This document shows positions 324-36,472 of a DNA stretch of 64,000 nt, piece by piece. The notes under the pieces are model-generated. The model was not told where the DNA came from and made no database searches. It saw nothing but the letters and a program-made list of their open reading frames with translations. Position 1 is the stretch's first letter. Each line of letters begins with the position of its first letter. Source of the DNA: Spirochaetota bacterium. GTDB lineage: Bacteria; Spirochaetota; UBA4802; UBA5550. Where the stretch lies: positions 4,718 to 68,717 of the forward strand of contig JALOTL010000017.1 in the NCBI GenBank assembly GCA_025457915.1, written 5' to 3'. The position numbers and the translations under genes are program-made.

Positions 324-393
324 TACCGATCAATAAACCGGGACACCGGTTTTTGAGGCAGGGGGATATAACAATTAACCAATGGAGATTAAT

Positions 394-5931: not shown

Positions 5932-7932
5932 ATGTACAATCTTCTATTCAGCCCGATCAAAATCAACTCGGTCGAGATCAAAAACCGCGTATCCTATCCG
6001 GCGCTCGGGCTGCTGTACTGCTACGACGGAAAGCTGAACGACCGGCTCTATAATTATTTCAGGGAAAAAGCCTCCGGCGGCGCGGGAATGATAACGGTCG
6101 GCCCCGTGGGATTCGATTTCACCGGGAGCGGGCCCGTCGCGATTCAGATTGGAACAGATGACGCGATGCCCTCGTTCGAAAAGATGACACGCGTCATCCA
6201 CGACGAGGGGGCCGCTGCATGGATACAGATATTTCACGCCGGCGCCTATTCATACTCCAGGGCCCTGGGGGGCGACGATCCCGTGGCCCCTTCGGCCGTG
6301 TATTCAAGGTACTCGAAAACCGTGCCGCGCGAGCTTTCGCGCGACGACATCATGAGCGTTCAGAAGGAATTCGTGAAGGCCGCGGTGCGCGCGAAAAAAT
6401 GCGGCTTCGACGGCGTGGAGATCATCGGCTCTGCCGGATACCTGGTGACCCAGTTCCTGTCGCCGCTCAAAAACCTCCGCACGGACGAATACGGGGGGAG
6501 CTTAGAAAACAGGACCAGGTTCGCGAGGGAGATAATCTGCATGATGAGGGATTCCCTGGGCCCCGACTACCCCATAACGATAAGGATGGCCGGCAACGAC
6601 TTCGTGCCGGGAAGCGTGACATCCGGGGAGACCCCGGAGATCGCGAAGGAATATGAAAAATCCGGGATCGACATGATAAACGTTACGGGAGGCTGGCATG
6701 AGTCCCATATTCCACAGCTCCCCATGACCCTCCCGCGAGGTGGATTCGCGTACCTCGCGCTTAACGTCAGGAAAGCCGTAAGCATTCCCGTGATGGCATC
6801 GAACAGGATATCGACGCCGGACGAGGCCGAGAGGATACTGGCCGACGGGATGGCGGACATGGTAAACCTCGGGAGGGTCCTGATCGCCGATCCCGAGTGG
6901 CCGAAAAAAGCCATGGAGGGAAGGCCTGAAGAGATTAGGCCGTGCGTGGCCTGCAACCAGGGATGCACGGACAGCCTGTTCAGCGGACAGCCGGTAGCCT
7001 GCATCTGCAACGCCAGGGCGGGCCACGAGGCCGAAAGAATCATCAGGAAGGCGAAGCCGCCTAAAAAAATTCTGGTGGCCGGGGCGGGCCCGGGAGGGCT
7101 CGAGGCCGCGATCAGGGCCGCGGAGGCCGGACACAGCGTCGAGCTGTGCGAAAAAAGCGGCGACATAGGAGGCCAGCTGTGGATTGCGGCGGCGCCGCCG
7201 CACAAGTCGGACCTGCTGGATATCATCAAATACTACAGGACCATGCTTGCAAAATACGGCGTCAGGGTCAGGCTCAACACCGAGGTCACCGCCGACCTGG
7301 TAAGATCAGAAAAGCCGGACCACGTTATCGTTGCCGAGGGCGCGGAGGCCCTCATACCGCCGATAAAGGGCATGGATGATCCCTCCGTAATAACAGCATG
7401 GAAGGTCCTGCGGGATGACCCGCCCCTCGGGAAAAAAATAGCGGTCATCGGCGGCGGCGCGGTGGGCCTTGAGACCGCCCACTTCCTCGCGATGAAGGGA
7501 ACACTGACGCCGGAAGCGCTGCATTTCCTTTTCCTGTACGAGGCCGAGACCGCCGAGAGGCTGAGGCTTTACGCCACCAGGGGAACAAAGGACGTAACGG
7601 TTTTCGAAATGCTCCCGAAACCAGGGACCGGAATAGGAAGATCGACCAAGTGGATAATCATAGACAATCTCGACAGGTTCGGGGTGAAGGTCATATCATC
7701 AGCAAAGGTCACAGCAATAAAAGACGGGGAGGTCTGCTTCGAGCGGAACGGCAATGCGGAAAGCATCAGGTTCGACAGCGTTGTCAACGCGGTCGGATCA
7801 AGGGCGGTGAAAAAGCTTACCGAATCCATGAAATCCGCCGGGATCCCCTTCACCGCGATAGGCGACTGCGTAAAACCCGCCCAGATAGGGGATGCTGTTC
7901 ACCAGGGTTTTCTCGCGATTATGAATCTCTGA
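5932..7932 (+). CDS. 2,4-dienoyl-CoA reductase-like flavoenzyme (Old Yellow Enzyme TIM barrel plus FAD/NAD(P)-binding domain)
   Basis: It has an OYE-like N-terminal half (HAGAY, GFDGVEI), a C-terminal Rossmann GAGPGG motif and the Cys cluster CVACNQGC. At 666 aa it fits the FadH architecture. It is divergent from the enoyl-CoA hydratase. Confidence 0.8.
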   Translation: MYNLLFSPIKINSVEIKNRVSYPALGLLYCYDGKLNDRLYNYFREKASGGAGMITVGPVGFDFTGSGPVAIQIGTDDAMPSFEKMTRVIHDEGAAAWIQIFHAGAYSYSRALGGDDPVAPSAVYSRYSKTVPRELSRDDIMSVQKEFVKAAVRAKKCGFDGVEIIGSAGYLVTQFLSPLKNLRTDEYGGSLENRTRFAREIICMMRDSLGPDYPITIRMAGNDFVPGSVTSGETPEIAKEYEKSGIDMINVTGGWHESHIPQLPMTLPRGGFAYLALNVRKAVSIPVMASNRISTPDEAERILADGMADMVNLGRVLIADPEWPKKAMEGRPEEIRPCVACNQGCTDSLFSGQPVACICNARAGHEAERIIRKAKPPKKILVAGAGPGGLEAAIRAAEAGHSVELCEKSGDIGGQLWIAAAPPHKSDLLDIIKYYRTMLAKYGVRVRLNTEVTADLVRSEKPDHVIVAEGAEALIPPIKGMDDPSVITAWKVLRDDPPLGKKIAVIGGGAVGLETAHFLAMKGTLTPEALHFLFLYEAETAERLRLYATRGTKDVTVFEMLPKPGTGIGRSTKWIIIDNLDRFGVKVISSAKVTAIKDGEVCFERNGNAESIRFDSVVNAVGSRAVKKLTESMKSAGIPFTAIGDCVKPAQIGDAVHQGFLAIMNL

Positions 7933-19433: not shown

Positions 19434-20135
19434 TCACCCGAGAAAGCGGCCCCAGTTCCCGGTCAGGGTCTCGTATTCAAGGCCGCGTCTTACAATGGCC
19501 ATGAAATCGCTCCTCGAAATCTCGGCCGCTCCAAGGCTCTCAAGGTGTCCGGTATGAACCTGGCAGTCGATCATGATGAATCCCATTTCGCGGAGCCTTC
19601 CCGCGAGGGTTATGAAGGCGGCCTTGGACGCGTTCGACTCCCTCGTGAACATCGACTCTCCGAAAAAGCACTTTCCGAGCGATATGCCGTACAGTCCGCC
19701 CGCCAGTTTGCCGTCCCTCCATGCCTCGACCGAGTGGGCGTATCCCAGTCCGTGCAGCACCCTGTAGGCCCCGGACATCTCGTCCGTTATCCATGTGCCC
19801 CTCTGCTTCTTCCTCGGTTTCCTGCATCCCTCGATGACTTCGCTGAAGGCCCGGTCGAACGTGATGCTGAAGGTATTCCTGGACAGGACCTGCTTCATCG
19901 ACCTTGACACCCTCAGCTCGTCCGGAAACAGGACGAACCTCGGGTCCGGCGACCACCAGATGATCGGATCGCCGTCGGAATACCACGGGAAGATCCCGTT
20001 CCTGTACGCCTCGATCAGCCTTTCCGGGGAGAGATCGCCGCCTACGGCCAGGATGCCGCTCTGATCGGCCAGCTCTACCGGGGGAAACTTGATATCATCG
20101 TTAAGTTCAAATACCGGCATGGGTGATAAATCCAA
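19434..20135 (-). CDS. aat: Leucyl/phenylalanyl-tRNA--protein transferase
   Basis: The characteristic FPWYSDGDPIIWWSPDPR and GGLYGISLG motifs are present. A probable start MPVFEL lies at 20120. Confidence 0.8.
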   Translation of the reverse strand: MDLSPMPVFELNDDIKFPPVELADQSGILAVGGDLSPERLIEAYRNGIFPWYSDGDPIIWWSPDPRFVLFPDELRVSRSMKQVLSRNTFSITFDRAFSEVIEGCRKPRKKQRGTWITDEMSGAYRVLHGLGYAHSVEAWRDGKLAGGLYGISLGKCFFGESMFTRESNASKAAFITLAGRLREMGFIMIDCQVHTGHLESLGAAEISRSDFMAIVRRGLEYETLTGNWGRFLG

Positions 20136-20294
20136 TTATGGGATACTGCATTATACTGATATGAAAAGGCGTGTCAATAATAGAAAGTAGCTTTTAGATG
20201 TCTTTCCGGGTACGATAATTAAAAACCCTGTAATTGACCCCGGCATGCAGCGACAGACCGGGGCCTTTAATAATCAAGCCTGATTTATTTTTTT

Positions 20295-20521
20295 TTATGG
20301 GAACCTCTATAAATCAGATTTTTCATTATAAAACCGCTGAAAAAATCTGATGGGTGATCACAAAAACTACCGTTTTTGTGCCTACCATAGGGCGCCAGTA
20401 TTGAAAAAACCGGTTTTTTTGTTTGTTTTAAAATGAAAAAGCTGGTTTTTGTGACTGCCCTAATTTAAACATTGAAAGTGCCCACAAGGGAACTCATGAT
20501 TTGATTATTAGAGGCTTCCTT
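20295..20521 (+). repeat. MITE-like structured intergenic repeat, copy A (with a roughly 115 bp internal insertion)
   Basis: The left end TTATGGGAACCTCTATAAATCAGAT and the right end TGATTTGATTATTAGAGGCTTCC are inverted. It shares TTTTTCATTATAAAACCnCTGAAAAAA and TAATTTAAACATTGAAAGTGCCCACAAGGGAAC almost verbatim with the copy at 63541-63657. Confidence 0.7.
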
Positions 20522-20626
20522 TTAAAGCAAACTGCTGTTTGAATGATCGGGATAATTAATAAAAACATGAATCACATGAGGTCTGCCGATTAATTATCTT
20601 TTAATTTTTCAAAAAAAAAGCTTGAA

Positions 20627-20667
20627 CTATTCCTTGATTAGTCAATATTTGACTTATCAAGGAATAG
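20627..20667 (+). promoter_or_regulatory. Nested perfect palindrome, candidate MarR autoregulatory operator
   Basis: CTATTCCTTGAT TAGTCAATATTTGACT TATCAAGGAATAG forms a 12-bp perfect outer arm around an inner AGTCAA/TTGACT palindrome. It ends 16 nt before the marR start codon. Confidence 0.55.
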
Positions 20668-20682
20668 GAGCATTCAAACCGC

Positions 20683-21102
20683 ATGGATGACAGGCTGCTT
20701 TTTCTCATGTCAAAGGCCCAGTATGTATTAAAAAATTATCTTAAAAAGGAATTTAAATCCGGCGGCATTGAACTGTCCGCCGCGCAGATAGGGATACTCT
20801 TCGCTTTAAAAAATAAAAACGGACAGTCAATGAACGAACTGGGCCGTATCATTTCCATCGATAACGCCGCAATCACGCGGCATGTCGACGCGCTTGAACG
20901 GGAGGGCTCTGTTAAACGCCTTCCCGACAGGAACGACCGGAGGAAAAATCTTGTCATCATAACGCGCAAGGGACTGGCGGAGGCTGAAAAATCCGCGGTC
21001 ATCGCCAGGCGGGTCAACGAAATGATCAAGGAAGGTTTTAGTGAAGATGAAATCAACGTTTTTAAGGCGGTATTCAACAGTTTTTTAAAAAAATTTATTT
21101 AA
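20683..21102 (+). CDS. MarR-family transcriptional regulator
   Basis: It is 139 aa with the winged-helix region SAAQIGILFALKN...MNELGRIISIDNAAITRHVDALEREG. Confidence 0.8.
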   Translation: MDDRLLFLMSKAQYVLKNYLKKEFKSGGIELSAAQIGILFALKNKNGQSMNELGRIISIDNAAITRHVDALEREGSVKRLPDRNDRRKNLVIITRKGLAEAEKSAVIARRVNEMIKEGFSEDEINVFKAVFNSFLKKFI

Positions 21103-21125
21103 CATGGATCTCCGGAGGTTAATCA

Positions 21126-21584
21126 ATGAGTAGAGCATTATCATCCTACAATGTCCTGAACCGGCTTCCTTTCGGAAAATTTTTATTTTCAAAAGCGGTA
21201 TGCTTTACCGCACCGTATTTCAGATCGATCAAACCGCGTTTCGTGGAACTGAAACCCGGCTACTGCGAAATAAAAATGAAAAAGCGCAGGGCCGTATTGA
21301 ACCATCTGAAAAGCGTGCACGCGATCGCCATGTGCAATCTCTGCGAACTTGCCGGCGGCACCGCGCTTGACGTTACAATCCCCGGACACATGCGCTGGAT
21401 CCCGCGCGGCATGCAGGTAAAATACCTGAAAATGGCCAAAACGGACCTGATGGGGACCTGTACAATACGGAACGATGAAGTGCAAAAACCGGGATCGGTT
21501 CCGGTAACCGTGCATGTCACGGACAGGAACGGCATAGAGGTAATGACCGCGGTCATCGATATGCACATCACCGAACGTAAATGA
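21126..21584 (+). CDS. Hotdog-fold thioesterase-like protein (PaaI/YiiD-C-like; DUF4442-type)
   Basis: It is 152 aa with the pattern HAIAMCNLCELAGG typical of the hotdog thioesterase superfamily. The family assignment is from memory. Confidence 0.45.
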   Translation: MSRALSSYNVLNRLPFGKFLFSKAVCFTAPYFRSIKPRFVELKPGYCEIKMKKRRAVLNHLKSVHAIAMCNLCELAGGTALDVTIPGHMRWIPRGMQVKYLKMAKTDLMGTCTIRNDEVQKPGSVPVTVHVTDRNGIEVMTAVIDMHITERK

Positions 21585-21843
21585 TCAGATGATGCTTATT
21601 ATATCATGGCCCGTCGTTATCTTTCCATTTCTTAAAATAATATGACCGCCGGCGCCCTGATTCATTGATGCCGTCGAGGCCATGGAAAGCAAAACCGGAC
21701 CGGATTTCTATTTGACATAATATTACCGTACTGTAACAAGTTCATAAAGGGTACCGCAGGGAAGACTCCCTGAACAGAAGCGCGGCGTTTTCATTCTGCG
21801 GGTTATATTTTATACGATTAAAGATTAACGGAGCCTGTGATAT

Positions 21844-22395
21844 ATGAAAATCCTTATTCTAAACGGCAATCCCGATGCGGGCGACAGGGTCCTTGAAGGC
21901 TATATGGCCGCGCTAAAAGAGCGGCTTGATGAATCCGGTCATCAAACCGATCTTGTCAGCCTGCGCGAAAAAAAAATCAGGCCCTGCACCGGGTGTTTCG
22001 GCTGCTGGATTAAAACGCCGGGCACCTGCATCATACCCGACGACGCGATCGGCATTGCCGGGAAATACATTTCGTCCGACATGGTGATACTGGCGTCGCC
22101 CATGGTGAACGGTTATTTTTCATCCATGCTGAAGAACGCTATAGACAGGAATATCCCGGTCATGCATCCCCACCTCGAGGAGGTGGACGGCGAAGTGCAC
22201 CACCTGAAGAGGTACGACAGCTACCCTGACATCGGCATCCTACTCAAGCCCGAACAGTCCACGGATGAAGAGGATATCGAGATCGCGAAAGACCTGTTCA
22301 GGCGCATGAGCATAAACATGAGGACAAATCTGAGGTTCATAGAATTCACGGACAGACCTGCTGCGGAGGTTGCGGATGCAGTTGACATTCATTAA
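21844..22395 (+). CDS. NADPH-dependent FMN reductase family flavoprotein with a Cys cluster (iron-sulfur-flavoprotein-like)
   Basis: MKILILNGNPD is a flavodoxin-like start, and CTGCFGCWIKTPGTC is as in Isf-type proteins. Confidence 0.7.
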   Translation: MKILILNGNPDAGDRVLEGYMAALKERLDESGHQTDLVSLREKKIRPCTGCFGCWIKTPGTCIIPDDAIGIAGKYISSDMVILASPMVNGYFSSMLKNAIDRNIPVMHPHLEEVDGEVHHLKRYDSYPDIGILLKPEQSTDEEDIEIAKDLFRRMSINMRTNLRFIEFTDRPAAEVADAVDIH

Positions 22396-23032
22396 CGGCT
22401 CCCCCAGGGGGGAAAAGGGCAATACGGCAAAACTGATGGACAATTTCGTGAAAGGGTTCCTCGAGACGCCCGGCAACAAATGCGCGGTGGAATACATCGT
22501 GAAACACAGGAAAAACCCGTCCGTTCTGAAAGAGATATTCTACGGATCCGAAAACGTGATAATCGGGTTTCCGCTTTACGCGGACGCCATGCCCGGCAGC
22601 GTCAAGGAATTCCTTGACGCAATAATTCCCGCACCAGCCGGAGCAAAAATACCCTCACTGGGATTCATGTCTCAGTGCGGATTTCCCGAGACGGGGCACC
22701 TGAGGTATGTCGAGCGCTATCTCGAAAAATTCACGAAACGGCTCGGCGCGGATTATCTCGGCTCCATCATGAAGGGCGGCGGCGAGGGCCTGCACATGCA
22801 GCCGAAGTTCCTCGTGGAAAAATTCTTCAACGGCCTGCACTTTCTCGGCAAAAAATTCGGGGAGACCGGCAAGCTCGACCGGGACGACCTGGACCGGTTC
22901 GCGCGGCCCGAGCACCTTACGCCGGAACAGATCAACGGCATTATCCCCTTCATCAACAAGGCATTGTGGGACGAATGGATGAAGGAAAACGGCGCTCTCG
23001 AAAAAAGCTTCGACAGACCGTATAAAAAATAG
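22370..23032 (+). CDS. NADPH-dependent FMN reductase family flavoprotein
   Basis: LTFINGSPRGEKGNTAKL and GFPLYADAMPG are flavodoxin-like-fold signatures. It overlaps the upstream gene by about 26 nt. Confidence 0.7.
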   Translation: MRMQLTFINGSPRGEKGNTAKLMDNFVKGFLETPGNKCAVEYIVKHRKNPSVLKEIFYGSENVIIGFPLYADAMPGSVKEFLDAIIPAPAGAKIPSLGFMSQCGFPETGHLRYVERYLEKFTKRLGADYLGSIMKGGGEGLHMQPKFLVEKFFNGLHFLGKKFGETGKLDRDDLDRFARPEHLTPEQINGIIPFINKALWDEWMKENGALEKSFDRPYKK

Positions 23033-23139
23033 AATTATCGCCGGATACACGAAGAGGATCTTCTGCATCAGTCACGGGCCACGCAACCGGTAACGGCGCG
23101 CCTTCAATAACCGCGACGAATCCAGTGAATTGCATCACC

Positions 23140-23562
23140 TCATTTTATGATCCATATATTGTGGCCGCAATATTTGCATTTCGTCAGATAGACGTGCGTC
23201 TCCGACCGCCTGAAGTAATTGTCCCCGAATTCCGACCCCTGATAATGATCAAACAGCTCACGTTTGCCTTTCGGGAAAAACCGGCGGCAGGTCGGACAGC
23301 GGAGGGACGTGATCAGGGATTTGATCAATATCAATAATAAAAGAAAGGCCCAGAATATTCCGACAATAACCAAATACCTGACATGGTAGTTCTTTGCGAC
23401 CTCAATAATGACAATCCATATTATGGCCTGAACGGTAAACAATCCCAGGAATATCAGGGAATATTTGAACGCCCTCAGGCCCCTCTTCACCTTGAGATCC
23501 ATAGCCGCGTCGTATTCAGCGCGCAGCATGTCCCTTCTGCTCATATTGTTTTTGTCAGACAT
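23140..23562 (-). CDS. Small membrane protein with a C-terminal zinc ribbon (paralog family member 1)
   Basis: Two TM helices are followed by LRCPTCRRFFPKGK...THVYLTKCKYCGHNIWIIK (CPxC...CxxC). Confidence 0.5.
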   Translation of the reverse strand: MSDKNNMSRRDMLRAEYDAAMDLKVKRGLRAFKYSLIFLGLFTVQAIIWIVIIEVAKNYHVRYLVIVGIFWAFLLLLILIKSLITSLRCPTCRRFFPKGKRELFDHYQGSEFGDNYFRRSETHVYLTKCKYCGHNIWIIK

Positions 23563-23608
23563 GTTTTACTCCATGATGGATATTTTCAACCGATGCCGAT
23601 AGACGCCT

Positions 23609-24076
23609 TTATTTTAAAACCCATATGATATGACCGCAATATTTGCATTCCGTCCAATAGACATGCGTGGTTGATGATCTGAAATAAGAATCTCCACCGC
23701 TGCTGATACCGATGTCAGTGCCTTCATAAGAGGTATATTTTTCCAGTTTACCCTTTGGGAAGAACCGCCGGCATTTCGGACAGCGGAGGGACTTAAATAC
23801 TCCGGCCCCGGTTAAAACAAATAAAACAATAAATATGACGGTCATGACAAGGGACGGCAGTAAAGCATGAGACGCGAAAGAGTGGACCCGCAATCCTGCG
23901 ATTTTAATGAAAGACTCCTGGGCGAATATATAAAGAACAATATTTATTGTTATCAATATGAAAGAAAGGAACAATGAGCGCATTACCCCGCCCATCTGTT
24001 TTTGATCATTTTCAGCCATTTCCTCCATCGCCCTGCGATAATCCTCAAAAGATACTTTTGTTTTATTATCCGGCAT
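23609..24076 (-). CDS. Small membrane protein with a C-terminal zinc ribbon (paralog family member 2)
   Basis: Two TM helices are followed by LRCPKCRRFFPKGK...THVYWTECKYCGHIIWVLK. It is near-identical to member 1 in the ribbon. Confidence 0.5.
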   Translation of the reverse strand: MPDNKTKVSFEDYRRAMEEMAENDQKQMGGVMRSLFLSFILITINIVLYIFAQESFIKIAGLRVHSFASHALLPSLVMTVIFIVLFVLTGAGVFKSLRCPKCRRFFPKGKLEKYTSYEGTDIGISSGGDSYFRSSTTHVYWTECKYCGHIIWVLK

Positions 24077-24251
24077 CGTTTGCTCCTTTGTTTTATGTAA
24101 TTACTTATTTTAAAATCATTTATTCAGCACAATAAGTTATACATGTTTTGAAATGCGGTTTATACTGTAAAAATCAGGCACGCCGCTTCATATCAGGGCC
24201 AGGCGGCACAATGGGCCTGATGTTAAGCAACCGCGATCATAAAAAGGCATT

Positions 24252-24851
24252 TCAGCGCGCCCATGTTTTCAAACAATAGCGGCAGCGGTAAGTGCGGCGG
24301 AACACTCCGTATTCCTCCTTTACAACTGCCACGCCGCCGTAAATGGTGTTCACGAGCATCGGAGAAGTCGCCGTACCCGTCCGCTCTACCAGTATGAGCT
24401 GGGCGGCGAACAATTTACGGCAATGGGGACATTTATAAAACCGATACGTAAAAACAAGCGCAGCCGCGATAAGCGCCCCGATCACGCTCCAGCCCAGTAC
24501 AAGATTCACGATTGAGAGAAACATTATGCCGAAACTTCCGATCAACATGTAGACAAGGATGGCCCCGATGGTCTGGTGCGTGCGCAGGAAAAAGGTCGAC
24601 CATTCGTTTTTGTGGCCGCTCAATATCGAACGCAGAACGGCGATGCATACGAGGATGACCATTACACCGGGCAAAAGCGCCATCGCGGCCTTTGCCGAAG
24701 CGTTTGGATCCGGAAACGCCGTCATGCAGGGCAATAGCGACAGGCCGAGCAGCAGCAATCCTCCTATGGCGCCGAACACGTAACCCACCACACGGAACAC
24801 CGGGTCGTTGACTTCCGTCTTCATTTCATAGCCTGATTGTTGAGTTCCCAT
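24252..24851 (-). CDS. Membrane protein with a C-terminal zinc ribbon (divergent paralog, member 3)
   Basis: Four TM helices are followed by YKCPHCRKLF...TYRCRYCLKTW. Confidence 0.45.
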   Translation of the reverse strand: MGTQQSGYEMKTEVNDPVFRVVGYVFGAIGGLLLLGLSLLPCMTAFPDPNASAKAAMALLPGVMVILVCIAVLRSILSGHKNEWSTFFLRTHQTIGAILVYMLIGSFGIMFLSIVNLVLGWSVIGALIAAALVFTYRFYKCPHCRKLFAAQLILVERTGTATSPMLVNTIYGGVAVVKEEYGVFRRTYRCRYCLKTWAR

Positions 24852-25331
24852 ATTCCGGCCATCATCCTCCTTTAAGTTTAATTTTTTTTATCAATTTGTT
24901 TCTTCATCAACTTCACGCAAAAGCCGCAAATGCAATGAAAAACATGACAGGTCCTTTTTCACTTAACGTCGCAGGCGCAAGAGACGCCAGCCGCAGAGAG
25001 CCGCTTAAACACATGAACATGTTCAAGCGTTATCCGGATAATTGATAACAAGCAAAATATAATATGTTTCTCCTCGATTGATTGCTATGAAATAAAGATT
25101 TTATGGTGCTCAGGCAAGGATGTCAAATTAATATTGACTAAATATGGTATTTATACCCAAAAGAGAGGCACACAGGCATGGATTAATTTTAAGCAGTCGA
25201 TAACTGATCAATGTTTTTCACGGAGGTTTTTTGTTTAATATATTCTGACCTCGTTGACAATTCTCCGTACTTCCGAAACCATCTCTGCACGGAAAATTCA
25301 ATGAGCAGCAAAAATAAACAAGTACAATACC

Positions 25332-26405
25332 ATGCCATATAAAAAAGCCATGATATACTACTGGAGCGGGACGGGCAATACTTTAAGAATTTCCAAATGG
25401 GCTTTTAATTTTCTTAAAAATAAATTATCCATCGTATCAATTTCATCTGTAATTAATTCAAATCCCGATACACAGACCATGGGAGAGAATACTCTTTTAT
25501 TGATAGCGATGCCGACCCATGGATTTACCGCGCCGTGGCAGGTAATTAAATTCTGCCTCCGTCTCCCGATGGGAAAAAAAACCGCTGCCGTGACGATCGC
25601 CAACGGCGCCGGCACCTACCCCGGATTTTATCTGCCCGGATTTTCCGCATCGGCGAATTCCGTCATTTCATTCATACTGCTCTTGAAGGGCTACAGGGTC
25701 AGGGGATTTATCGATATTGACATGCCCGGAAGCTGGCCGGCTTTCTGCCCGGGATTAAACAGGGAACATGCCGACCACTTTTTAAAAAATGCAAAAAGAA
25801 AAACGGAGGCGTTTATAAAAATCATCCTTTCCGGTGAAAAACATATAATCAACTTCCGGAATGTTTTAGAATTCATCTTCGGCATGCTGTTAATACCGGT
25901 TTCATTCGGTTATATAATTTTCGGCAGGTTTTTTTTCGCCAAACTGCAATTCGCGAATCTAAAGTGCAATTCATGCGGGACCTGCGCGGGGAACTGTTCC
26001 CAAAAAGCAATTCTAATGAAAGGAAAAGAGGGATTTAAAAAACCGTACTGGACATTCAAATGTGAAAGCTGCGGCAAGTGCATCAGCTATTGTCCGCAAC
26101 AGGCCGTGGAAACGGGACATTCAATGGCAATATTGATCTGGTACATTTTATCGCTCAGGGTTTCTTTTTATTTGATCGATTATTTTTTCCAGTCATCCGC
26201 AATCATTTCATTCTTGAAAAATAAATATATATTTAAACTCCTCAACTACATGTTTTATTTACTCACTATTTTCGTATGCTACTATGTGCTATATTATATG
26301 GTAAAGATACCGCTTTTAAATAAATTCTTTTCCATTACTTCAGGCACGCACTGGTGGAAAAAATATCATGAACCTTCCATAAAAATACAGGATTTTAAAT
26401 CTTAA
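25332..26405 (+). CDS. Flavodoxin-like / 4Fe-4S ferredoxin-domain protein with C-terminal membrane helices (low-GC, probably acquired)
   Basis: It has an N-terminal flavodoxin-like YYWSGTGNT, two Cys clusters CNSCGTCAGNC and CESCGKCISYCP, and a hydrophobic C-terminus. GC is about 35% against a host value near 58%. Confidence 0.6.
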   Translation: MPYKKAMIYYWSGTGNTLRISKWAFNFLKNKLSIVSISSVINSNPDTQTMGENTLLLIAMPTHGFTAPWQVIKFCLRLPMGKKTAAVTIANGAGTYPGFYLPGFSASANSVISFILLLKGYRVRGFIDIDMPGSWPAFCPGLNREHADHFLKNAKRKTEAFIKIILSGEKHIINFRNVLEFIFGMLLIPVSFGYIIFGRFFFAKLQFANLKCNSCGTCAGNCSQKAILMKGKEGFKKPYWTFKCESCGKCISYCPQQAVETGHSMAILIWYILSLRVSFYLIDYFFQSSAIISFLKNKYIFKLLNYMFYLLTIFVCYYVLYYMVKIPLLNKFFSITSGTHWWKKYHEPSIKIQDFKS

Positions 26406-26662
26406 AAATCTAATGAATCACCAATCCTGTTTTCAAAGATAAAACCTGTTCCTTCATGCTTCACGGAAATGTCTTTCTTTGTTCTGCTGATTTATAATTT
26501 TCAGCGGTCAGATCAATATTCCTTGGATTTTCCCGGATCAATTCTCATGGGGCTTTACAAAAGCAGGTTTTTTTACTTGATGATAATTTATTTTTTGAAT
26601 TGCATATTGCATGCATTCGGGTATTATTTGTAAGTATGTAAAAAAAAGCATCGAGGTGGACT

Positions 26663-27232
26663 ATGCATTTACCGGCATGGGTTCCTTTTTTTGGGCCGTT
26701 TTTTAATCGGCGGCGGGCGTGGCGCGAGCTCCCGGACCTGGCCAGGCGGTGGGGCATGCGGTTCATCGAAAGCGACATGAGGTATTCGTTCGGCTCCATC
26801 GACGGGACCCTGCAGGGGTACCCCGTGGTGATCCAGCCTGACATTCCCATGGTCTGGGTGAAGTTCAACCGAGGGATCGAGGATTTCCAGCTCATGATGC
26901 TCGACACCGGCCAGAAGCGCCGCAAGTATGACCTGGGGCATGCAAGGTTCGAGCAGGCGTTCAAAACGATGGAGCTCAGCCAGCGGCTGGCGGACACCCT
27001 GCGCGGCCGGGCGGACGTCTTCGACCGTGTGCTGGCGCTGCTGCGCCACCGGGTCGTTGCGATCAATCTGTCAAACCAGGGCCTTATCTGCAGCATGCAC
27101 AATCCGTTCCGAAGGCCCTGGGGCAGAAATATCGAAAGCGCAAACTATATCACAGTTAGCGACCTGGAGCGGCTTCTGCCGGAGATGATCGAGGTGGTAA
27201 GGCTTCTCGAATCGGTATTATCTCCCGGTTAG
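26663..27232 (+). CDS. Hypothetical protein (high-GC ORF inside the low-GC island)
   Basis: It is a 189 aa ORF with host-like codon usage. No motif was recognised. Confidence 0.35.
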   Translation: MHLPAWVPFFGPFFNRRRAWRELPDLARRWGMRFIESDMRYSFGSIDGTLQGYPVVIQPDIPMVWVKFNRGIEDFQLMMLDTGQKRRKYDLGHARFEQAFKTMELSQRLADTLRGRADVFDRVLALLRHRVVAINLSNQGLICSMHNPFRRPWGRNIESANYITVSDLERLLPEMIEVVRLLESVLSPG

Positions 27233-27403
27233 CTTCCTGTGGCGAACAAATTCCCCCTCCACTGAAGGCCGATTGATCCGGCTGCCCGGCGCACATGATC
27301 TTTCTGAAGCTCACCGCAGCAAGCGCAGCGCATGACGTCGTGTTATTTGCAGTTGCCCCTGCCCTTCTTTTTTATCTTCAAAAAAAATATATTTAAATTA
27401 AAA

Positions 27404-27850
27404 TTATTCGCCGATACTTATAAGCTGTTTGCATATTTTATCTCCATTTAAAATTGATTTTTCCAAATCAACCTCTATAGTTCTATTAAACAGCGTTTCA
27501 AATATTTTCCTGGTATACCCCATGGTGCAGTTGCATAAATACGGATTACTGACTCCTTCTTTAACCATAGGGCAGGTGCACTCTTCAAAAACAAGCGTGA
27601 TTTTATTACCCTCTTTCATGAGCCCCGGCGTATCATAATATTGCGTTTTAAAAGCCGCGAATAATTTATCCAGGTCCTTATCATTCATATGTTCATTTCT
27701 GATTTTTACAGCTCCTTCAAGAATTGCGGATGTCTTTGAGCATTCCCCGCCGCACACATGCAATAATTCGATTCCTTTATTGCCATCCAGTTTTGATATC
27801 TCATGCAAAATTGAATTTATCCATTGAATGATCCTGTCCTTGTTGTTCAT
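27404..27850 (-). CDS. Small cysteine-rich protein (possibly ATC-hydrolase-like family)
   Basis: It is 148 aa with HVCGGECSKT, ECTCPMVK and YLCNCTMGY. It is low-GC. The family assignment is from memory and uncertain. Confidence 0.4.
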   Translation of the reverse strand: MNNKDRIIQWINSILHEISKLDGNKGIELLHVCGGECSKTSAILEGAVKIRNEHMNDKDLDKLFAAFKTQYYDTPGLMKEGNKITLVFEECTCPMVKEGVSNPYLCNCTMGYTRKIFETLFNRTIEVDLEKSILNGDKICKQLISIGE

Positions 27851-28184
27851 CAGATATATCCTTATTGTAAATATTCCATAACTGGTTATTATATATTATA
27901 CTTAAAGATTACTATCATTATAACGACCACGAATGTTGATTGTCTTTGCTATATGTCCGTGTACGCAAGGGGCGTGCCATTTTCATACAGCGTTCCCGGC
28001 GCATGCTGCGCGGCCGAAGACAATGTAATGACCCGTGCCGGGCTTGTTGAAGCAGACCGCAGGGAGTGACTTGTTGTTCGACGCTGGTTCGCAATACTTA
28101 CAAAAAGTTGTCGAAGCCATTGCTCGCCCGGCATCAGCTTATTCTTGTTCGTTAGACGGCGCAGTCAATTAAAGTATAAAACCA

Positions 28185-28832
28185 TCATTTAATCAATACT
28201 TTGTCCCACCCGGTTTTTTTCCAATATTTCTTATTTAAAATATTTATTAAATAACCCGGAGTGGATCTGTTTCCCAAACCCGAATTAAACGCCTGGTCAA
28301 TGTCGTCAATTACTTCAATTGGTCCAAGAATATTTTCATTATGTATGATATGATCCGATTTACCATCCCACTTGATACCCCATGCGACATTTAACGGACG
28401 ATAGAGCGCATCAAATGATTTACTGTCCAGACTCGGGTCAGCATATGTCCATTGCCCGTCGATAAGCATTTGAACAAAATAATGATAATACGGATTATTA
28501 ATAAAAAATACGTCATTGCCCAGCAATGGCTTTAAAAAATTCTTGTTTAACGGACGTTTAACAATTCTGCCGGGAATGGAATATTTTCTGCTTATTGCCG
28601 CCAGGAGAAGGGCTTTATTCCAGCATGCGCCATACTTCTTTCGCATTGTTTCAGACGCTTTAACTTTAATCGCATCGGCACAGAGAGGCAGGCTGTCACG
28701 GACAAAATTAAAAATTTCGACAGCAGTGGAACTTATTGATTTGGAAAGGTTGATGGGTAAATTTTCAAAAACCGGGTTATTAAAATCGCAATAATATGTT
28801 TCATTCAGGAACATTTTATTATTTTCCGACAT
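28185..28832 (-). CDS. Transglutaminase-like superfamily protein (putative cysteine peptidase fold)
   Basis: GACWNKALLLAAISRKYSIPGR matches the G-x-C...GIPAR transglutaminase-core Cys motif, and a downstream His/Asp region (YHYFVQMLIDGQWTYADPS) follows. It is low-GC. Confidence 0.55.
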   Translation of the reverse strand: MSENNKMFLNETYYCDFNNPVFENLPINLSKSISSTAVEIFNFVRDSLPLCADAIKVKASETMRKKYGACWNKALLLAAISRKYSIPGRIVKRPLNKNFLKPLLGNDVFFINNPYYHYFVQMLIDGQWTYADPSLDSKSFDALYRPLNVAWGIKWDGKSDHIIHNENILGPIEVIDDIDQAFNSGLGNRSTPGYLINILNKKYWKKTGWDKVLIK

Positions 28833-28986
28833 ATATCCCTCTGTTTATTATTATCTATGCGCCGCCACGCATGGCGGCTTAAACCACAAAAAATAACGGG
28901 CCAATTTCGAATAGCATATACATTATCACCCACCCTGATCACCGCATCCATGATTTGCTGTTTACCGCACCAGATAAATATCATAT

Positions 28987-29499
28987 TTATATTGAATACG
29001 ATTTTTCAAATGAAACAATATTTATCTTTTCATCTTCACAATATTTTTCGCCGGTTTTCTTAAAACCCAATCTCCGATAAAACCTGATGCTTCCCTCTGA
29101 AAAAGACGGCGTTCCGGTCGTCAATTTATACATCTCAGGAAACCACATTTCAATCTGTTTTATCGCAAACGTACCGGCGCCTTTATTTTTATAATCATTA
29201 TCGATAAATATCTGCACGAGCTCCCAGTGGTATAAATTTTTGCCGTTTTTATTAATTTTACCGCGTAATGCTATTATTACGGCCCCGATGATCCTGGATT
29301 TATACATGATTTTATGGTATACGCCTTCTTTCATTGAATGAACATGCCAGTCCGGGTCGTCATAATTTTTCGGCCCTCCGGGTTTGCCGTCTTTATGCAG
29401 AATCATTTCCTGGTCAAAAGATTTCCTGCAAATATCGGCCATTTCAACGGCATCGATAAAATCTGCTCTTTCTAATTTCAGGTCGTTTGTGTTTATCAT
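28987..29499 (-). CDS. GNAT-family N-acetyltransferase
   Basis: It is 170 aa with an acetyl-CoA-binding-like RIIGAVII...NKNKGAGTFAIKQ. It is low-GC. Confidence 0.6.
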   Translation of the reverse strand: MINTNDLKLERADFIDAVEMADICRKSFDQEMILHKDGKPGGPKNYDDPDWHVHSMKEGVYHKIMYKSRIIGAVIIALRGKINKNGKNLYHWELVQIFIDNDYKNKGAGTFAIKQIEMWFPEMYKLTTGTPSFSEGSIRFYRRLGFKKTGEKYCEDEKINIVSFEKSYSI

Positions 29500-29629
29500 G
29501 ATTTAACAATCATTTCATGGAATAATTCATACATGCCAATGAATATTCTGTTAGAAGCCGGGACAACGGATAAATATAATATGATGGATAAATGCACCTT
29601 GGTATTCCAATAAACACTTTAATCCGGTT

Positions 29630-30469
29630 TTAACGAAGAATTACCCATGGATGTTTGCAAAAGCGACAACGAACTTCATAAACATTGACGCGCTGACTGG
29701 TGTGAACAGGAGAACCTCCCGTACCAAGCGACCCGATCGGCATGCTTGGTCCGCTATAACTATCAACGCATTCAAGTTTCACCCGGGCAAAAAACCGTCT
29801 GCATTTCGGGCAGCGCCTGGGCATAACAACAGCCAAAATGATACTGACAATGACAAGAGCGGTCCACCCCGCTATTACATACCGAAAATAATCAGTATTA
29901 AACGCAAAATAAGTACCCATCATTCCCCCAAAGATCATTAATGCGATCAATGGATAAAATTTCATTTCACGTTTTTGTTTTTCCGCGATTTTAGAGATTT
30001 CGTCTGATACGTTGAGCTTAGGCGGAGGATTGTCCGGGTCTATGGTTCTATCGAAAAGGTCCTTATGATATATCAGCATCTTTATTAATTCCGGATTGAA
30101 CGCCTGAAGCAGATCAACTGCCGCCCATCGAAGTCTGAGCGGCTCATCTTCTTCATCGCAAACACCGATAAGCCTTTTTAATTCCTCAGGGACTTTATCC
30201 CCGATGACTGGTAAAGCATTAACAGCAAGCAATCTAACTTCAAGGTTGCGTTCTTTGGAACATGCAACATCAAGCAGCGCGCCTGCGGCCCGTTGATTGC
30301 GCCAAGGATCATTTGTCGTTTTAAGCCATTCATAGAGTTCTTCAACATGCTTCGGAAACTCTGTCGGATCATCGGTAGCCAGTCCCGCCTTTATGGAATC
30401 GATATCATTCATAAAGCACCTCGCATAATAACAAGTTATTTCCCCATGGGCGAACAGGACGGCCGTCAT
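29630..30469 (-). CDS. HEAT/PBS-lyase-like repeat protein with a TM region and the same C-terminal zinc ribbon (paralog family member 4)
   Basis: It has N-terminal HEAT-like repeats (AAGALLDVACS...RLLAVNALPVIGD), two TM helices, then RRCPKCRRFF...VYEVRCRFCKHPWVILR. Confidence 0.5.
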   Translation of the reverse strand: MTAVLFAHGEITCYYARCFMNDIDSIKAGLATDDPTEFPKHVEELYEWLKTTNDPWRNQRAAGALLDVACSKERNLEVRLLAVNALPVIGDKVPEELKRLIGVCDEEDEPLRLRWAAVDLLQAFNPELIKMLIYHKDLFDRTIDPDNPPPKLNVSDEISKIAEKQKREMKFYPLIALMIFGGMMGTYFAFNTDYFRYVIAGWTALVIVSIILAVVMPRRCPKCRRFFARVKLECVDSYSGPSMPIGSLGTGGSPVHTSQRVNVYEVRCRFCKHPWVILR

Positions 30470-30768
30470 CTACACACACTGGAAACGTCGTTTCATATAA
30501 CGCTGAAGGCATGCCCGCCGTTGCCGGATGTTCGATATATATAATAGAGCCGGGGGTTTATAAAATCAAGCTGCTTTTACGCGAGGGGAAAGGGCAATTT
30601 AATGGAAATTTTTCCGGACTTGCCTGGAATTTGTATTTACATGACCCGCAACCTGTGTATATAAGAAGCGTCCAGTCTCTTTGACCGGACCCCCCGGGGC
30701 GCAGTTTCCTGATTATTAAAGACAGCGGCTGCTCCCTTCAACAAACTCAGCGATATTCAAGGCGGGCC

Positions 30769-31527
30769 ATGGATAAAGACATCGAAAAGCTTATATCGAA
30801 AGCCGAAGGGAAGAAATGGTGGAATAAATTCTTCCCGCGGTCCAAACAGCATAAAAAGGCGGCAAGGCCCGAAAGACCGGCACCGACGAACGCCGAACGC
30901 TACGAGGTTTTCATGACGACCACCTATAACTCGACATTCCGGTTTCTTTCAAAGTTCTTCTATGTCGCTTCGCTTGCATTGATCCTGATAGTCCTTCTGT
31001 CGAAAGAAACCCATGACGGCTCGGAGGCATATATCTTTCTCCTTTTTTTCATGCCGCTCCCCGCGTACCTGCTGGTCAACCTGCTCCGGTACATACATTT
31101 CCTCGGTTGGAGGAAAAGGCTCCCCTTCAGGCTTGAGGGATGGGAGGACCTGGCGAACACCAATGATCTCGACAGGATTTCCTGGCGCAACAACTGTACC
31201 ATTTCCATAATAATCCGGGACCCCGACCCCCTGCAGACCGATGCGATCAACGCCGCCCTTGCCATCTTTACCAGGGAGGCCGAAAAACAGATTTATACGG
31301 CCGACATGAAAGACAAAAACAGAATCAGGATTAAACCGTTTTCTTACGGATCCCTGAAGGCCGCGGGAAGCGCCAACGTAGACATAATAAGGCTGATACG
31401 GAAACTCTGCGAGGGCGATCTCTCAATGCTCGCGAGAAAATTCGAAAACTTCGAGGCGGTGAAACTCGGCATAAGCCGTGAAACATACAGCGTTCTGGAG
31501 CATGATACAGATTTTGTCGCCGACTGA
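30769..31527 (+). CDS. Hypothetical membrane protein
   Basis: It is 252 aa with two hydrophobic helices (about residues 60-110). No motif was recognised. Confidence 0.4.
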   Translation: MDKDIEKLISKAEGKKWWNKFFPRSKQHKKAARPERPAPTNAERYEVFMTTTYNSTFRFLSKFFYVASLALILIVLLSKETHDGSEAYIFLLFFMPLPAYLLVNLLRYIHFLGWRKRLPFRLEGWEDLANTNDLDRISWRNNCTISIIIRDPDPLQTDAINAALAIFTREAEKQIYTADMKDKNRIRIKPFSYGSLKAAGSANVDIIRLIRKLCEGDLSMLARKFENFEAVKLGISRETYSVLEHDTDFVAD

Positions 31528-31949
31528 CGCAATCGGCCGCGGATTACACTTCGCGCATTCGGCCCGGGCCGTCCGCGGCACAGAAGGCATCAGTGAAATT
31601 TCAACTTCATGAATGGCGCGGATATATTATTTTTCCAGTTGAATCCCCAGAAAAAAATTCCTAACATACAAAGATGGGCCGTATCGTTCCTGAAACATCC
31701 AATCCGTACATCCGGTAGATTATCGCGGACAAATATTAGACTGCTCGTATAATTGCAAATGACAAAATAGAGATATGGACGCTATTTGAAGGCCGCGTCT
31801 GTTGTGTACCGGTTTCGTCCGGGGCAATTGCATATAAAGTCCCCGGCGTATCCGACGACGACGCAGGCGGTGAGGCGACATTTGCTGAGCCTGTCGAAGC
31901 AAGCCCGGGGAGCGAAGCGGCTATGCTGTGCCATGTGCCGCTGCAGGTT

Positions 31950-32543
31950 CTAATCTAAAATTTCAATACAGCCATAATCTGTTTCCTGAAGGAATTCATT
32001 TATTTCTTCAATATTAAATTCTTCAGGATCAAAATCATTCCCAAGCCAATCAATCATATCTTGATATTGATCATTTTTAGGATTATTTATTATTGTCAAA
32101 AGTTCAGTATAACCATAAGGTCCACCGCAATCTTCAGGGGGACAATTTCGTTTTCCGTCAATACAAATTGGATATTGATTCCCTTTTTCGCTCGGTAATA
32201 TCTTTTCAAGAACAATTGTATGTTCCCAGCCGTCACCAAAATCATATTGATACATGAACCTGGCTTTTGGCACATTGCATAATGAATTTAACTTAATTTT
32301 TCTATAATCAATTATTTCTATAGATGAATCATCATCCGGTAAAGAATATGATTTTTTATTAATTACAAATTGATGCAAATGAGAATTTGTCCAACCCATA
32401 ATGGTTTGTATTACTTTATGTAAATCTGTTAACTTAATATCTGAATCAACCAGGAATCTCCTCCATATTATTGGCTTAATATGATCAAGAGTGATTTTGA
32501 GTTGAAATACATCCTCAGATTTAATTTTTTTTATAGATGCCAT
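31950..32543 (-). CDS. Plasmid pRiA4b ORF-3-like family protein (mobile-element-associated passenger gene)
   Basis: It is 197 aa with the characteristic YDFGDGWEH and CGGPYGY motifs. It is low-GC. Elsewhere this family is linked to IS/plasmid contexts (from memory). Confidence 0.55.
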   Translation of the reverse strand: MASIKKIKSEDVFQLKITLDHIKPIIWRRFLVDSDIKLTDLHKVIQTIMGWTNSHLHQFVINKKSYSLPDDDSSIEIIDYRKIKLNSLCNVPKARFMYQYDFGDGWEHTIVLEKILPSEKGNQYPICIDGKRNCPPEDCGGPYGYTELLTIINNPKNDQYQDMIDWLGNDFDPEEFNIEEINEFLQETDYGCIEILD

Positions 32544-32710
32544 AATTTTCCTTCACAAATTTAGTTAAAATGCAAGGGCAAATAACATTCCCCGGGCAGG
32601 CAACGTTATTCGCCCTTGTATCGTCTGCTGGTAACTTGTTGTGAAAGTACTGCGTCAGCAAGCCGTCCCATTCATTGAATTACGATCCAGAAACTCTCGA
32701 TATCCCCTTT

Positions 32711-34996
<2,286 letters not shown>

Positions 34997-35086
34997 TCAA
35001 AAATTAAGCCTTTTTAATATTCTTTTTGCATTTTTCACACACGCCATGTTAGACGAAGAAATTGGGCGATCTTTATAGAAATATTT

Positions 35087-35803
35087 TTATAGCTTATAAA
35101 ACATCCAATCCGGCATATATTTTAAAAATATTGCAATTATGGCCCACCTTTTAGTGATGTATGCTTTATCTCTTTTCTTTTTTATTACGGAAAATATTTG
35201 CCGTGCAGCAATTGTTGGAGGCATAACCCAGAATAATCCTTCTCCTTTTGCCATATCAGTATCAACAAAACCTGGTTTTATATCCGTAATGTATATTTGC
35301 AGTTTTGCTTTTTTTATTTTGCTTCTAATTCCTTCCATATAATTTGAAATAAAAGCTTTTGATGCATCATATGCTGGCGCAACTGGATCTCCTCTTAACG
35401 CTCCTATTGATGATATACCGACAATATGGCCTTTGCCTTTTTTTAAAAAATATTTAACAGCAATATTTAATGTCTTAGTAAATCCAAGAACATTTACATC
35501 TATTGTTTCTTTTTCTTTCTGCCAATCTAATTCTTCATTAAGATGTCCTATTCCGGAAGAAATAATTAATAAATCGATTCCTTCTAATTCAATAATTAAT
35601 TCATTTATGTTTTTTTCAATTTCATCGAGTTTTGAAATATCAATATATTTTACGAATGAAAGATTTGGTAATTCCTGCTGTAATTTTTTTAATAAATTAA
35701 CTCTACGTGCCGCAAGGCCAACAATATAATTTTCTTTGGATAATATTTTTGCGAGTTCCATTCCAATTCCGGAACTTGCTCCTATGATTATTGCTTTTTT
35801 CAT
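35087..35803 (-). CDS. Short-chain dehydrogenase/reductase (SDR) family oxidoreductase
   Basis: The start MKKAIIIGASSGIGMEL is the TGxxxGxG motif, and the YxxxK active site is YDASK. It is low-GC. The start at 35803 follows an RBS AAGGA. Confidence 0.8.
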   Translation of the reverse strand: MKKAIIIGASSGIGMELAKILSKENYIVGLAARRVNLLKKLQQELPNLSFVKYIDISKLDEIEKNINELIIELEGIDLLIISSGIGHLNEELDWQKEKETIDVNVLGFTKTLNIAVKYFLKKGKGHIVGISSIGALRGDPVAPAYDASKAFISNYMEGIRSKIKKAKLQIYITDIKPGFVDTDMAKGEGLFWVMPPTIAARQIFSVIKKKRDKAYITKRWAIIAIFLKYMPDWMFYKL

Positions 35804-36356
35804 TAAATTATTTTTCCTTAACAAAAAGTTCGCCAAATTTTTTCGTCTAACTACTTCATGTCCGCATTGCGTCATTGCATCTGATTGAGGCTGATGGACG
35901 AATTGCGGATATAAATTGATATTGAGCGATAAAGCGTATTGCGTATAAGAGATTATTGATTCCACGGAAAGTCAATCTTAAAACACACCATTATAGAATT
36001 CATCTAAGGGGCTTTTTATATTAATGAGTTCTTTATTGCCTGCGTGAGTGTAAATTTCAGTCGTCCCGCAGTTCGCGTGGCCCGGCGGTCCGATATCATC
36101 ATTGAACGGACTAAAATAAGCCCTCAATGGTTTATCGGCATCCCCAGTAGATATCAACGATCCGCGGGCTGAAAATGAAAAAAAATTTTTAGCGGAATGG
36201 AAGCCGGAACCCGGTCTCTTCCTCCTTTCTTCCTCCTATGTTGCTCCTATGTACCTCCTTTGTCGGTCTTTGTCATAAAACCTTATTTTTTTTTAAAATA
36301 CGCAGCGGACCCGATCATCGCCTTCAGATTCATGCATTTCCGCAAAAGGACACGTT

Positions 36357-36472
36357 GAATTCCGCTTCCGGAATTATAATTGCCAAATTTATAACGGCAT
36401 GAAAACCTGCTCCATCATCGACTCCCGGGTGGGCGGATTGCCGCCTGCATTAAATTCGTAATTTTCCAGTTC
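36357..36472 (+). repeat. Direct repeat copy 1 (about 116 bp), containing a frameshifted relic of the AEC transporter N-terminus
   Basis: It is about 85% identical to 36976-37092. GTGGGCGGATTGCCGCCTGCATTAAATTCG matches the start of the 37047 gene with a 1-nt deletion. Confidence 0.7.

Follow-up and report, generated by a model that had tools for sequence, protein, structure and literature searches.

Four intergenic repeats in a 64,000-nucleotide stretch of the genome of a Spirochaetota bacterium (assembly GCA_025457915.1, contig JALOTL010000017.1, forward-strand positions 4,718 to 68,717; the whole stretch is hereafter called the window and numbered from its first letter) are very probably copies of a non-autonomous DNA transposon, a bacterial MITE, short for miniature inverted-repeat transposable element, an interpretation to which we give a probability of about 0.85. 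The repeat is small and non-coding, has terminal inverted repeats, is bounded by a target-site duplication, occurs in many dispersed copies and shows insertion polymorphism between relatives, which is the definition of bacterial MITEs followed here (PMC3184786, PMC11602168). An earlier, sequence-only reading of the window had proposed either a mobile miniature element carrying an outward promoter, attenuator or regulator site, or a dispersed cis-regulatory module of a regulon. The mobility in the first of these proposals is borne out by the inverted ends, the 4-bp duplication, the dozens of copies per genome, the identical copies at different loci and the empty orthologous sites described below, while neither a regulon module nor an element that regularly brings an outward promoter or attenuator to the downstream gene is supported, given the random orientation of the copies and the unrelated genes that flank them.

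Mobility is documented by two loci of related genomes whose flanks are ~88% identical. The filled site (L072) reads ...CTGTAATAT-ATAA-(GGGAAC...GTGCCC)-ATAA-TACAAATTGG, and the empty site (L118) reads ...CTGTAATAT-ATAA-TGCAAATTGG; in a shorter reading of the same pair, L072 appears as ...ATAT-ATAA-element-ATAA-TACAAATT and L118 as ...ATAT-ATAA-TGCAAATT. Since L072 equals L118 plus the element and one extra ATAA (TTAT on the element strand), insertion was accompanied by a 4-bp target-site duplication. Throughout the family, TTAT stands at both ends in 170 of 191 distinct copies (89%), and one end alone differs in 17. Variant flanks that agree with each other were also found (TTAA/TTAA twice, TATA/TATA once, TAAA/TAAA once), whereas TTATs that formed part of the element and mutated independently, at the ~8% level of single-end variation, would have given ~0.1 concordant cases. 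The TATA/TATA and TAAA/TAAA flanks rule out a simple 'TA' duplication around an element with T...T ends. The flanks are AT-rich, with the TTAT target within ~8 nt of AT-rich sequence, and contain no extended target motif of the kind that an RNA-guided IS110-type insertion would predict; neither was there a replication-strand bias, as single-strand transposition would predict (70 vs 80 copies by the sign of the GC skew).

At another orthologous site the element is present in L145 and L076, and L131 has the empty form. Likewise, the gene pair around one of the window copies (copy B below), a divergent SGNH-hydrolase and PadR pair, is syntenic in L073 with 56% and 77% amino-acid identity, and the 306-nt intergenic region of L073 orthologous to the copy B site has no element. 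The activity of the family is recent in some hosts; one metagenome-assembled genome (MAG) contains groups of 5, 3, 3 and 3 copies that are 100% identical and lie at different loci, and the same MAG holds two subfamilies side by side. The sequence-only reading had suggested looking for target-site duplications and for empty sites in relatives, and both are now in hand: the TTAT duplication in the L072/L118 pair, and the sites that are empty in L118, in L131 and, at the position of copy B, in L073. It had also reasoned that a restriction of the repeat to the copies of the window, with orthologous conservation in relatives, would speak against mobility; instead, at least 228 further loci carry the family and the orthologous regions are empty.

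The distribution of the family was surveyed in metagenome and species-representative genome collections with the scan pattern CACAAGGGAAC-N10-40-GTTCCCTTAT, for which ~8 chance matches are expected per collection. Matches came to at least 120 stretches in the metagenomes and at least 116 in the genomes, and a hidden Markov model (HMM) of the family found a genuine copy in 228 of the 236 loci listed; the eight loci that lack one include the Actinomadura and Saccharibacteria records, the only ones of these listed. Among the matches listed, all labelled hosts of genuine copies are Spirochaetota or Leptospirales MAGs. Three single MAGs contain at least 27, at least 28 and at least 19 loci, and the 1.88 Mb of fetched loci gave 297 HMM hits, copy numbers that are lower bounds and include some metagenome loci that are near-duplicates of one another. 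The family populates an uncultured lineage of Spirochaetota/Leptospirales; Leptospirales have been reported as the most MITE-enriched order, with a median of 154 elements per genome (PMC11602168). As the proteins of the window are 50–77% identical to those encoded in syntenic blocks of the metagenome contigs L071 and L073, the organism from which the window derives would be a member of this broad lineage too. From 56127 onwards, the 3' portion of the window is identical to contig Ga0392394_0000049 of JGI metagenome 3300037461 (L001), which starts at window position 56127, runs ~94 kb past the right end of the window and is the only public contig found that encodes the PPDK_N protein of the window; the window must accordingly stem from another assembly of the same organism. 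A blastn search with one representative copy against 72,556 plasmids gave no match, Rfam returned nothing for the whole window at gathering thresholds and just noise-level microRNA and snoRNA hits for copy D at a permissive E-value, and no published description of this repeat family was found in the literature.

Lengths are tightly distributed, with 116–123 nt in the majority of the 222 copies for which both ends are present. The 153 distinct canonical sequences yield a sharp consensus, which between its two TTAT flanks reads GGGCACCTCTAAAAA-(P2 hairpin)-TTTTAyC..ATAT-TGTGCCC-ACAA-GGGAAC-ATCC...TTTTTAGARGTTCCC. With flanks, the outer boundaries are TTAT-GGGCACCTCTAAAAA ... TTTTTAGAGGTTCCC-TTAT, the element ends being also written GGGMACCTCTAAAAA. 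The inverted ends described in the sequence-only reading proved to be imperfect terminal inverted repeats of 15–19 nt, GGGCACCTCTAAAAA and GGGAACCTCTAAAAA; in the consensus, 14 of 15 positions agree between the 5' end and the reverse-complemented 3' end, and 9 of 10 positions match over the core in copy D. Without exception the element starts with GGGCAC... on the left and finishes with ...GTTCCC on the right. A single fixed position distinguishes the ends (GGGCAC at the left vs GGGAAC for the reverse complement of the right). There is no ORF within copies A–D of the window, and the element encodes nothing.

On a single strand, whichever is taken, the element folds into two independent hairpins. 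Stem P1 (GGGCAC/GTGCCC) encloses P2, which is long and variable, and an ACAA linker joins P1 to P3 (GGGAAC...GTTCCC). The consensus gave a DNA fold of −25.7 kcal/mol (z = −7.2), copy D a fold of −29.2 kcal/mol (z = −3.7) and copy B an RNA fold of −50 kcal/mol (z = −8.8). Almost no variation is seen in the centre, GTGCCC-ACAA-GGGAAC, and its reverse complement, GTTCCC-TTGT-GGGCAC, resembles the junction that would form if the two ends were joined, GTTCCC-TTAT-GGGCAC. The predicted folds pair the ACAA linker with three flanking nucleotides, namely the final T of the left-hand TTAT and the two Ts that open the right-hand one. In a covariation test on 63 diverse copies, both partners had changed in 9 of the 11 P2 pairs, for instance CCGCTTTC/GAAAGCGG, TCAGGAGTT/AACTCCTGA and TCAGCATTT/AAATGCTGA, and in 3 of the 6 P1 pairs, such as GGTTAC/GTAACC; the foot of P3 was fixed by the scan pattern and so could not vary in this test. 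Paired cells amounted to 95.5%, against 85.3% in shuffles (0 of 500 reached the observed value) and at most 55% when the partners were slid. Folding of the copies, another check proposed at the outset, thus returned two stable hairpins supported by covariation. As to its likely origin, the element has the appearance of a tandem of two hairpin units.

The four loci of the window are copies of this one repeat, all on the plus strand, as judged from reading and alignment of the five loci that the earlier reading had grouped together; the fifth, at 58741–58850, belongs to a second element family. The copies and their parts are as follows.

20295–20351, plus strand: 5' part of copy A, with TTAT at 20295–20298, the 5' inverted repeat GGGAACCTCTATAAA and the larger part of the P2 hairpin (nhmmer 20295–20351).
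20352–20460, plus strand: nested element in copy A, 109 bp, with its own inverted ends GGGTGATCACAAAAAC and GGGCAGTCACAAAAAC.
20461–20523, plus strand: 3' part of copy A, with the P1 3' arm GTGCCC, the linker ACAA and the P3 hairpin (nhmmer 20404–20521).
38657–38774, plus strand: copy B, full length, with TTAT at 38657–38660 and 38771–38774 and a decayed 5' repeat (GTGCATCC).
40924–41098, plus strand: copy C, with TTAT at 40924–40927 and 41095–41098 (nhmmer covers 40924–41032).
63542–63657, plus strand: copy D, the most intact copy (nhmmer E = 2.5e-19, 70 bits).
63542–63551: left end of copy D, with TTAT at 63542–63545 and the 5' repeat and P1 arm GGGCAC at 63546–63551.
63610–63619: centre of copy D, with the P1 3' arm GTGCCC at 63610–63615 and the linker ACAA at 63616–63619.
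63620–63657: right end of copy D, with the P3 arms GGGAAC at 63620–63625 and GTTCCC at 63648–63653, and TTAT at 63654–63657.
58741–58815, plus strand: partial, decayed copy of the second element, ~75% identical over ~85 nt to the insertion of copy A.

These coordinates place copy B at 38657–38774 rather than 38651–38765, a shift of 6–9 nt, and the 3' end of copy A at about 20519–20523. Copy A spans 20295–20523 as a whole, is broken off after 20351 in the alignment to copy D and has a decayed 3' repeat (AGAGGCTTCC), after which TTTT stands where TTAT would be expected. The 3' repeat of copy C was located at 41084–41098 by the terminal-motif search, and the P3 loop of this copy holds ~55 extra nt. 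All four copies share the invariant core CACAAGGGAAC; GTTCCCTTAT forms the end of copies B, C and D, and TTATGGGNAYCTCT the start of copies A, C and D. The terminal motif TTATGGGAACCTCTA, allowing up to three mismatches, occurs at six sites of the window, against 1.3 expected (0 of 100 shuffles reached six). The family HMM, built from relatives, recovered copies D (2.5e-19), B (1e-11), C (1.2e-11) and A, the latter in two pieces (2.5e-4 and 8e-9), and matched nothing else in the window. Judged by their lower scores, the nested insertion in A and the expanded loop in C, the window copies are old, partly decayed insertions. Copy A lies at the left edge of a segment, window ~20000–36000, with a G+C content of 0.40–0.49 as compared to 0.53–0.59 on either side; this segment may be of different origin or function.

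The sequence-only reading had described copy A as copy D plus a 115-bp insertion. There is an insertion (113 bp), and it corresponds to a nested element of 109 bp at 20352–20460. This block is flanked by TGAT (20348–20351) and TAAT (20461–20464) at a place where copy D has a single TAAT, and its right end is also written GTTTTTGTGACTGCCC, giving the pair of ends GGGTGATCACAAAAAC / GTTTTTGTGACTGCCC; with its own inverted ends and these flanks, it is therefore regarded as a second, nested miniature element (DNA fold −20.8 kcal/mol, z = −3.8). The recurrence of part of the insertion near 58.7 kb was rightly noted, with ~75% identity over ~85 nt; the locus, at about 2615–2689 of L001 and upstream of the PPDK_N gene, has no nhmmer match to the main family, and the 3' end motif of the second element was seen in no other fetched locus. 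The second element resembles the main family in its GGG...CCC ends and in its 4-bp AT-rich flank, an apparent duplication (TGAT/TAAT), a similarity which suggests that the same kind of transposase may move both.

Further inserts were observed within copies of the main family. Several copies of different assemblies carry, at the point GTGCC^CACAAGG, an insert of the form TGCTGAACAGGATGTT...CACAGGATGTGC.AAAAGG.TTCGAC without a 4-bp duplication, which may be another small mobile element targeting the invariant centre.

L229, about 6540–6600: insert at GTGCC^CACAAGG.
L106, about 400–530: insert at GTGCC^CACAAGG.
L100, about 2290: insert at GTGCC^CACAAGG.

The P2 loop of copies in L121, L080, L157, L045 and L225 contains a GC-rich palindromic insert, CAACCCCCTCTTT.GTTCTCCCCCTGA.AGG...GTGGGGGTT, a third nested repeat type.

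If the element is a MITE, a transposase supplied in trans would bind both terminal repeats, cut TTAT with a 4-bp stagger and join the element in, and the hairpins would persist through a requirement of the transposition machinery or of a host factor, or else through selection for read-through transcripts that contain them. Among DDE enzymes, the IS5 (IS5-group) or IS701 type would presumably fit the 4-bp duplication and the GG ends, judging from ISfinder family features, and we take this as a lead only. None of the approaches to the autonomous partner led to a transposase. Orphan terminal repeats, sought in all loci as marks of an autonomous element, turned out to be truncated or interrupted copies beside ordinary genes. 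The multi-copy ORFs comprised ordinary enzymes and a family of 160–195 aa without a Pfam domain, present in at least four copies in one MAG and two in another, with two of these copies starting within ~100 nt of a MITE.

L228, 2846–3331: ORF of the 160–195 aa family.
L187, 6244–6753: ORF of the 160–195 aa family.
L134, 1165–1650: ORF of the 160–195 aa family.
L224, 7185–7670: ORF of the 160–195 aa family.
L174, 4095–4634: ORF of the 160–195 aa family.
L202, 6346–6930: ORF of the 160–195 aa family.

The search for ORFs flanked by inverted repeats turned up a phage-type integrase that is unrelated and an M23/LysM peptidase with two inverted copies around it. The latter arrangement (L221, 94–1478), in which the M23 peptidase/LysM gene (202–1203, minus strand) is bracketed by two inverted copies with their 5' ends outward, is composite-transposon-like. 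The ORFs of the low-G+C part of the window included no transposase.

Several observations weigh against the assignment to MITEs. Neither the 1.88 Mb of fetched loci nor the window yielded a transposase or an autonomous element whose ends match, so that mobilisation in trans is an inference. The target, TTAT, lacks palindromic symmetry and its orientation to the element is fixed, with ATAA in 0 of ~26 copies that were not ascertained through their flanks, a fixed orientation that a symmetric mechanism of terminal repeats and a DDE enzyme does not predict. Compensatory changes maintain both hairpins, which the interior of a passive MITE would not need, and a model of a simple, passive MITE does not account for the fixed difference between the two ends either; hairpin covariation could, for its part, arise without selection if template switching homogenised the palindrome arms. 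The scan pattern demanded a 3' TTAT and a short P3 loop, so the sample of copies is biased, and the gene calls in the loci are crude longest-ORF calls.

These features lend some weight, at a low probability, to an alternative in which the repeat is the non-autonomous partner of an HUH enzyme (IS200/IS605- or RAYT-like) or of a recombinase, which would read the two hairpins on one strand and insert the element in fixed orientation beside TTAT, the second TTAT belonging to the element or to a shared crossover core. The hairpins of the folded strand would present the ACAA linker to TTAT, the centre would act as an inverted mimic of the joined ends, and an HUH- or recombinase-like enzyme, or an asymmetric transposase, would carry out orientation-specific integration, with the covarying hairpins required for mobility or for a function at the RNA level. 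The strictly oriented, non-palindromic tetranucleotide, the covariation of both hairpins, the likeness of the centre to joined ends, the pairing of the linker with flanking TTAT nucleotides and the similar feet of the hairpins on the same strand (GGGCAC/GTGCCC and GGGAAC/GTTCCC), which directly abut the TTATs, are all consistent with such a mechanism. However, the flank variants are concordant at both ends, as a duplication predicts and an element-borne end next to an independent target does not; the ACAA linker is unchanged in the copies with variant flanks; the terminal inverted repeats are genuine over 15–19 nt; and the copies show no bias between leading and lagging strand. The handful of ORFs checked near copies included no Y1/HUH gene. 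The miniature elements derived from IS200/IS605 (PATEs) share with the present family the orientation-specific insertion beside a fixed tetranucleotide and the hairpins near both ends, but the IS200/IS605 family, which inserts 3' of its tetranucleotide and has subterminal hairpins, has neither terminal inverted repeats nor a duplication and does show replication-strand bias; with its inverted ends, concordant flanks and missing strand bias, the present family does not fit the PATEs.

The closest specific analogue of these repeats is bcr1 of the Bacillus cereus group (group A bcr repeats), a transcribed element of ~155 bp with a 5-bp direct repeat TTTAT, a distribution that differs between strains, two independent stem-loops kept by compensatory changes and no known transposase (PMC3184786, PMC6542083). 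The present family is similar in size (~120 bp), in its AT-rich direct-repeat flank (TTAT, 4 bp), in its non-conserved genomic distribution, in its cruciform-like fold of two stem-loops with compensatory changes and in that no transposase was found. It belongs, however, to another phylum; the resemblance is one of architecture, and the plasmids searched by blastn without a match include B. cereus-group plasmids reported to carry bcr1, an indirect negative for sequence similarity. A site-specific-recombination-like mechanism tied to TTTAT has been suggested for bcr1 (PMC6542083), and this close analogue speaks for hairpin guidance here as well. By that analogy, the element, and bcr1 too, might represent a class of hairpin-guided mobile DNA rather than a passive deletion derivative of an insertion sequence, an idea that we consider improbable.

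Bacterial MITEs in general, for example Correia/NEMIS of Neisseria and Nezha of cyanobacteria, are also small, non-coding elements with terminal inverted repeats, a flanking duplication, many dispersed and mostly intergenic copies, stable predicted stem-loops and filled and empty sites between relatives (PMC3184786, PMC11602168). There are differences: no cognate insertion sequence with the same ends was identified for this family, its ends differ at a fixed position (GGGCAC vs GGGAAC), the target of Correia is TA and here is a non-palindromic, orientation-specific 4-bp TTAT, and typical MITEs form one long end-to-end stem, in place of the two separate hairpins with an invariant centre seen here.

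A dispersed cis-regulatory RNA or DNA module (an attenuator, a riboswitch-like leader or a regulator site), or a multi-copy small-RNA gene, upstream of co-regulated genes is very unlikely and, as an explanation of the family, largely refuted. What made it attractive is the arrangement in the window, where each of the four copies is co-oriented with a plus-strand ORF 24–162 nt downstream (marR for A, padR for B, ttcA-like for C, PyrK-like for D), together with the conserved, covarying structure and the resemblance of P3 and the following T-run in copies C and D to an intrinsic terminator. Copy B lies between a divergent SGNH-hydrolase-like gene (minus strand) and a PadR-family gene (plus strand, start 38901), copy C ends 24–38 nt before the ttcA-like ORF, and the PyrK-like ORF (ATG at 63702) begins 45 nt downstream of copy D. 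Divergent genes flank copies B and C, which would look upstream of a gene whichever way they pointed, so that just A and D are informative for the pattern of a common orientation upstream of start codons, which was correctly described for the window and does not extend to the family. Among 164 classifiable copies, 41 are co-oriented and 57 anti-oriented between same-strand genes, 45 lie between divergent and 21 between convergent genes; with 41 against 57, there is thus no preference for facing a downstream gene, nor for a role as directional terminator. Positions downstream of gene ends are just as frequent, long ORFs contain 7 of 216 distinct copies, and the genes that flank copies are functionally unrelated to one another. 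The GGGAAC/GTTCCC stem of the sequence-only reading corresponds to P3, but its T-run in copies C and D is non-conserved flank, the first flank bases being merely A/T-rich family-wide. The orthologous intergenic regions without the element, the dozens of copies per genome, some of them identical, and the lack of an Rfam match argue in the same direction. The positions upstream of marR, padR, ttcA-like and PyrK-like genes reflect a preference for AT-rich intergenic sequence and not a common regulatory role; single insertions may have local effects on these genes.

Equally slight is the probability of a REP/REPIN-type repeat, that is, vertically inherited palindromic doublets kept by a single-copy RAYT transposase and not true transposon derivatives: high-copy, intergenic, short palindromic units in doublets, here seen as two tandem hairpin units with inverted ends, genome-specific subfamilies and the failure to find a multi-copy transposase recall such repeats, but REPs are GC-rich palindromes of 20–40 nt without target duplication, and the duplication at L072/L118, the long AT-rich stems and a consensus free of the GTAG or CGTC tag described for REPs (PMC3733652) do not fit that identity, no RAYT gene having been observed in a search that was not exhaustive for RAYT.

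Other repeated sequences of the window stand apart from the family. Two tandem paralogous small ORFs of 140 and 155 aa at 23140–24076 (minus strand) have DNA blocks 74–85% identical, with a third related block at 29776–29822; they gave weak, sub-threshold Pfam hits to membrane-protein DUFs and are unrelated to the 160–195 aa ORF family of the MAGs. A 114-nt direct repeat at 36305–36418 and 36924–37037 (80% identity, spacing 619 nt) is accompanied by a second, shorter repeat pair with the same 619-nt spacing, at 36452 and 37071, and this looks like a local tandem duplication of coding sequence.

Overall, these data remove the tempting reading that the marR, padR, ttcA-like and pyrK-like genes have in common an upstream riboswitch, attenuator or regulon site. 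A lineage for which richness in MITEs has already been reported gains a family that is well defined and has been active recently. The consensus and the model allow blocks of ~120 bp in intergenic regions of this uncultured Spirochaetota clade to be masked or tracked, and single insertions may change how nearby genes are expressed and may help to tell strains apart in metagenomes. The fixed orientation of the 4-bp target, the ends differing at one position, the compensatory changes in the hairpins and the parallel with bcr1 are the features that deserve mechanistic attention; if a partner enzyme were found, the family could help to explain how elements of the bcr1 type move.

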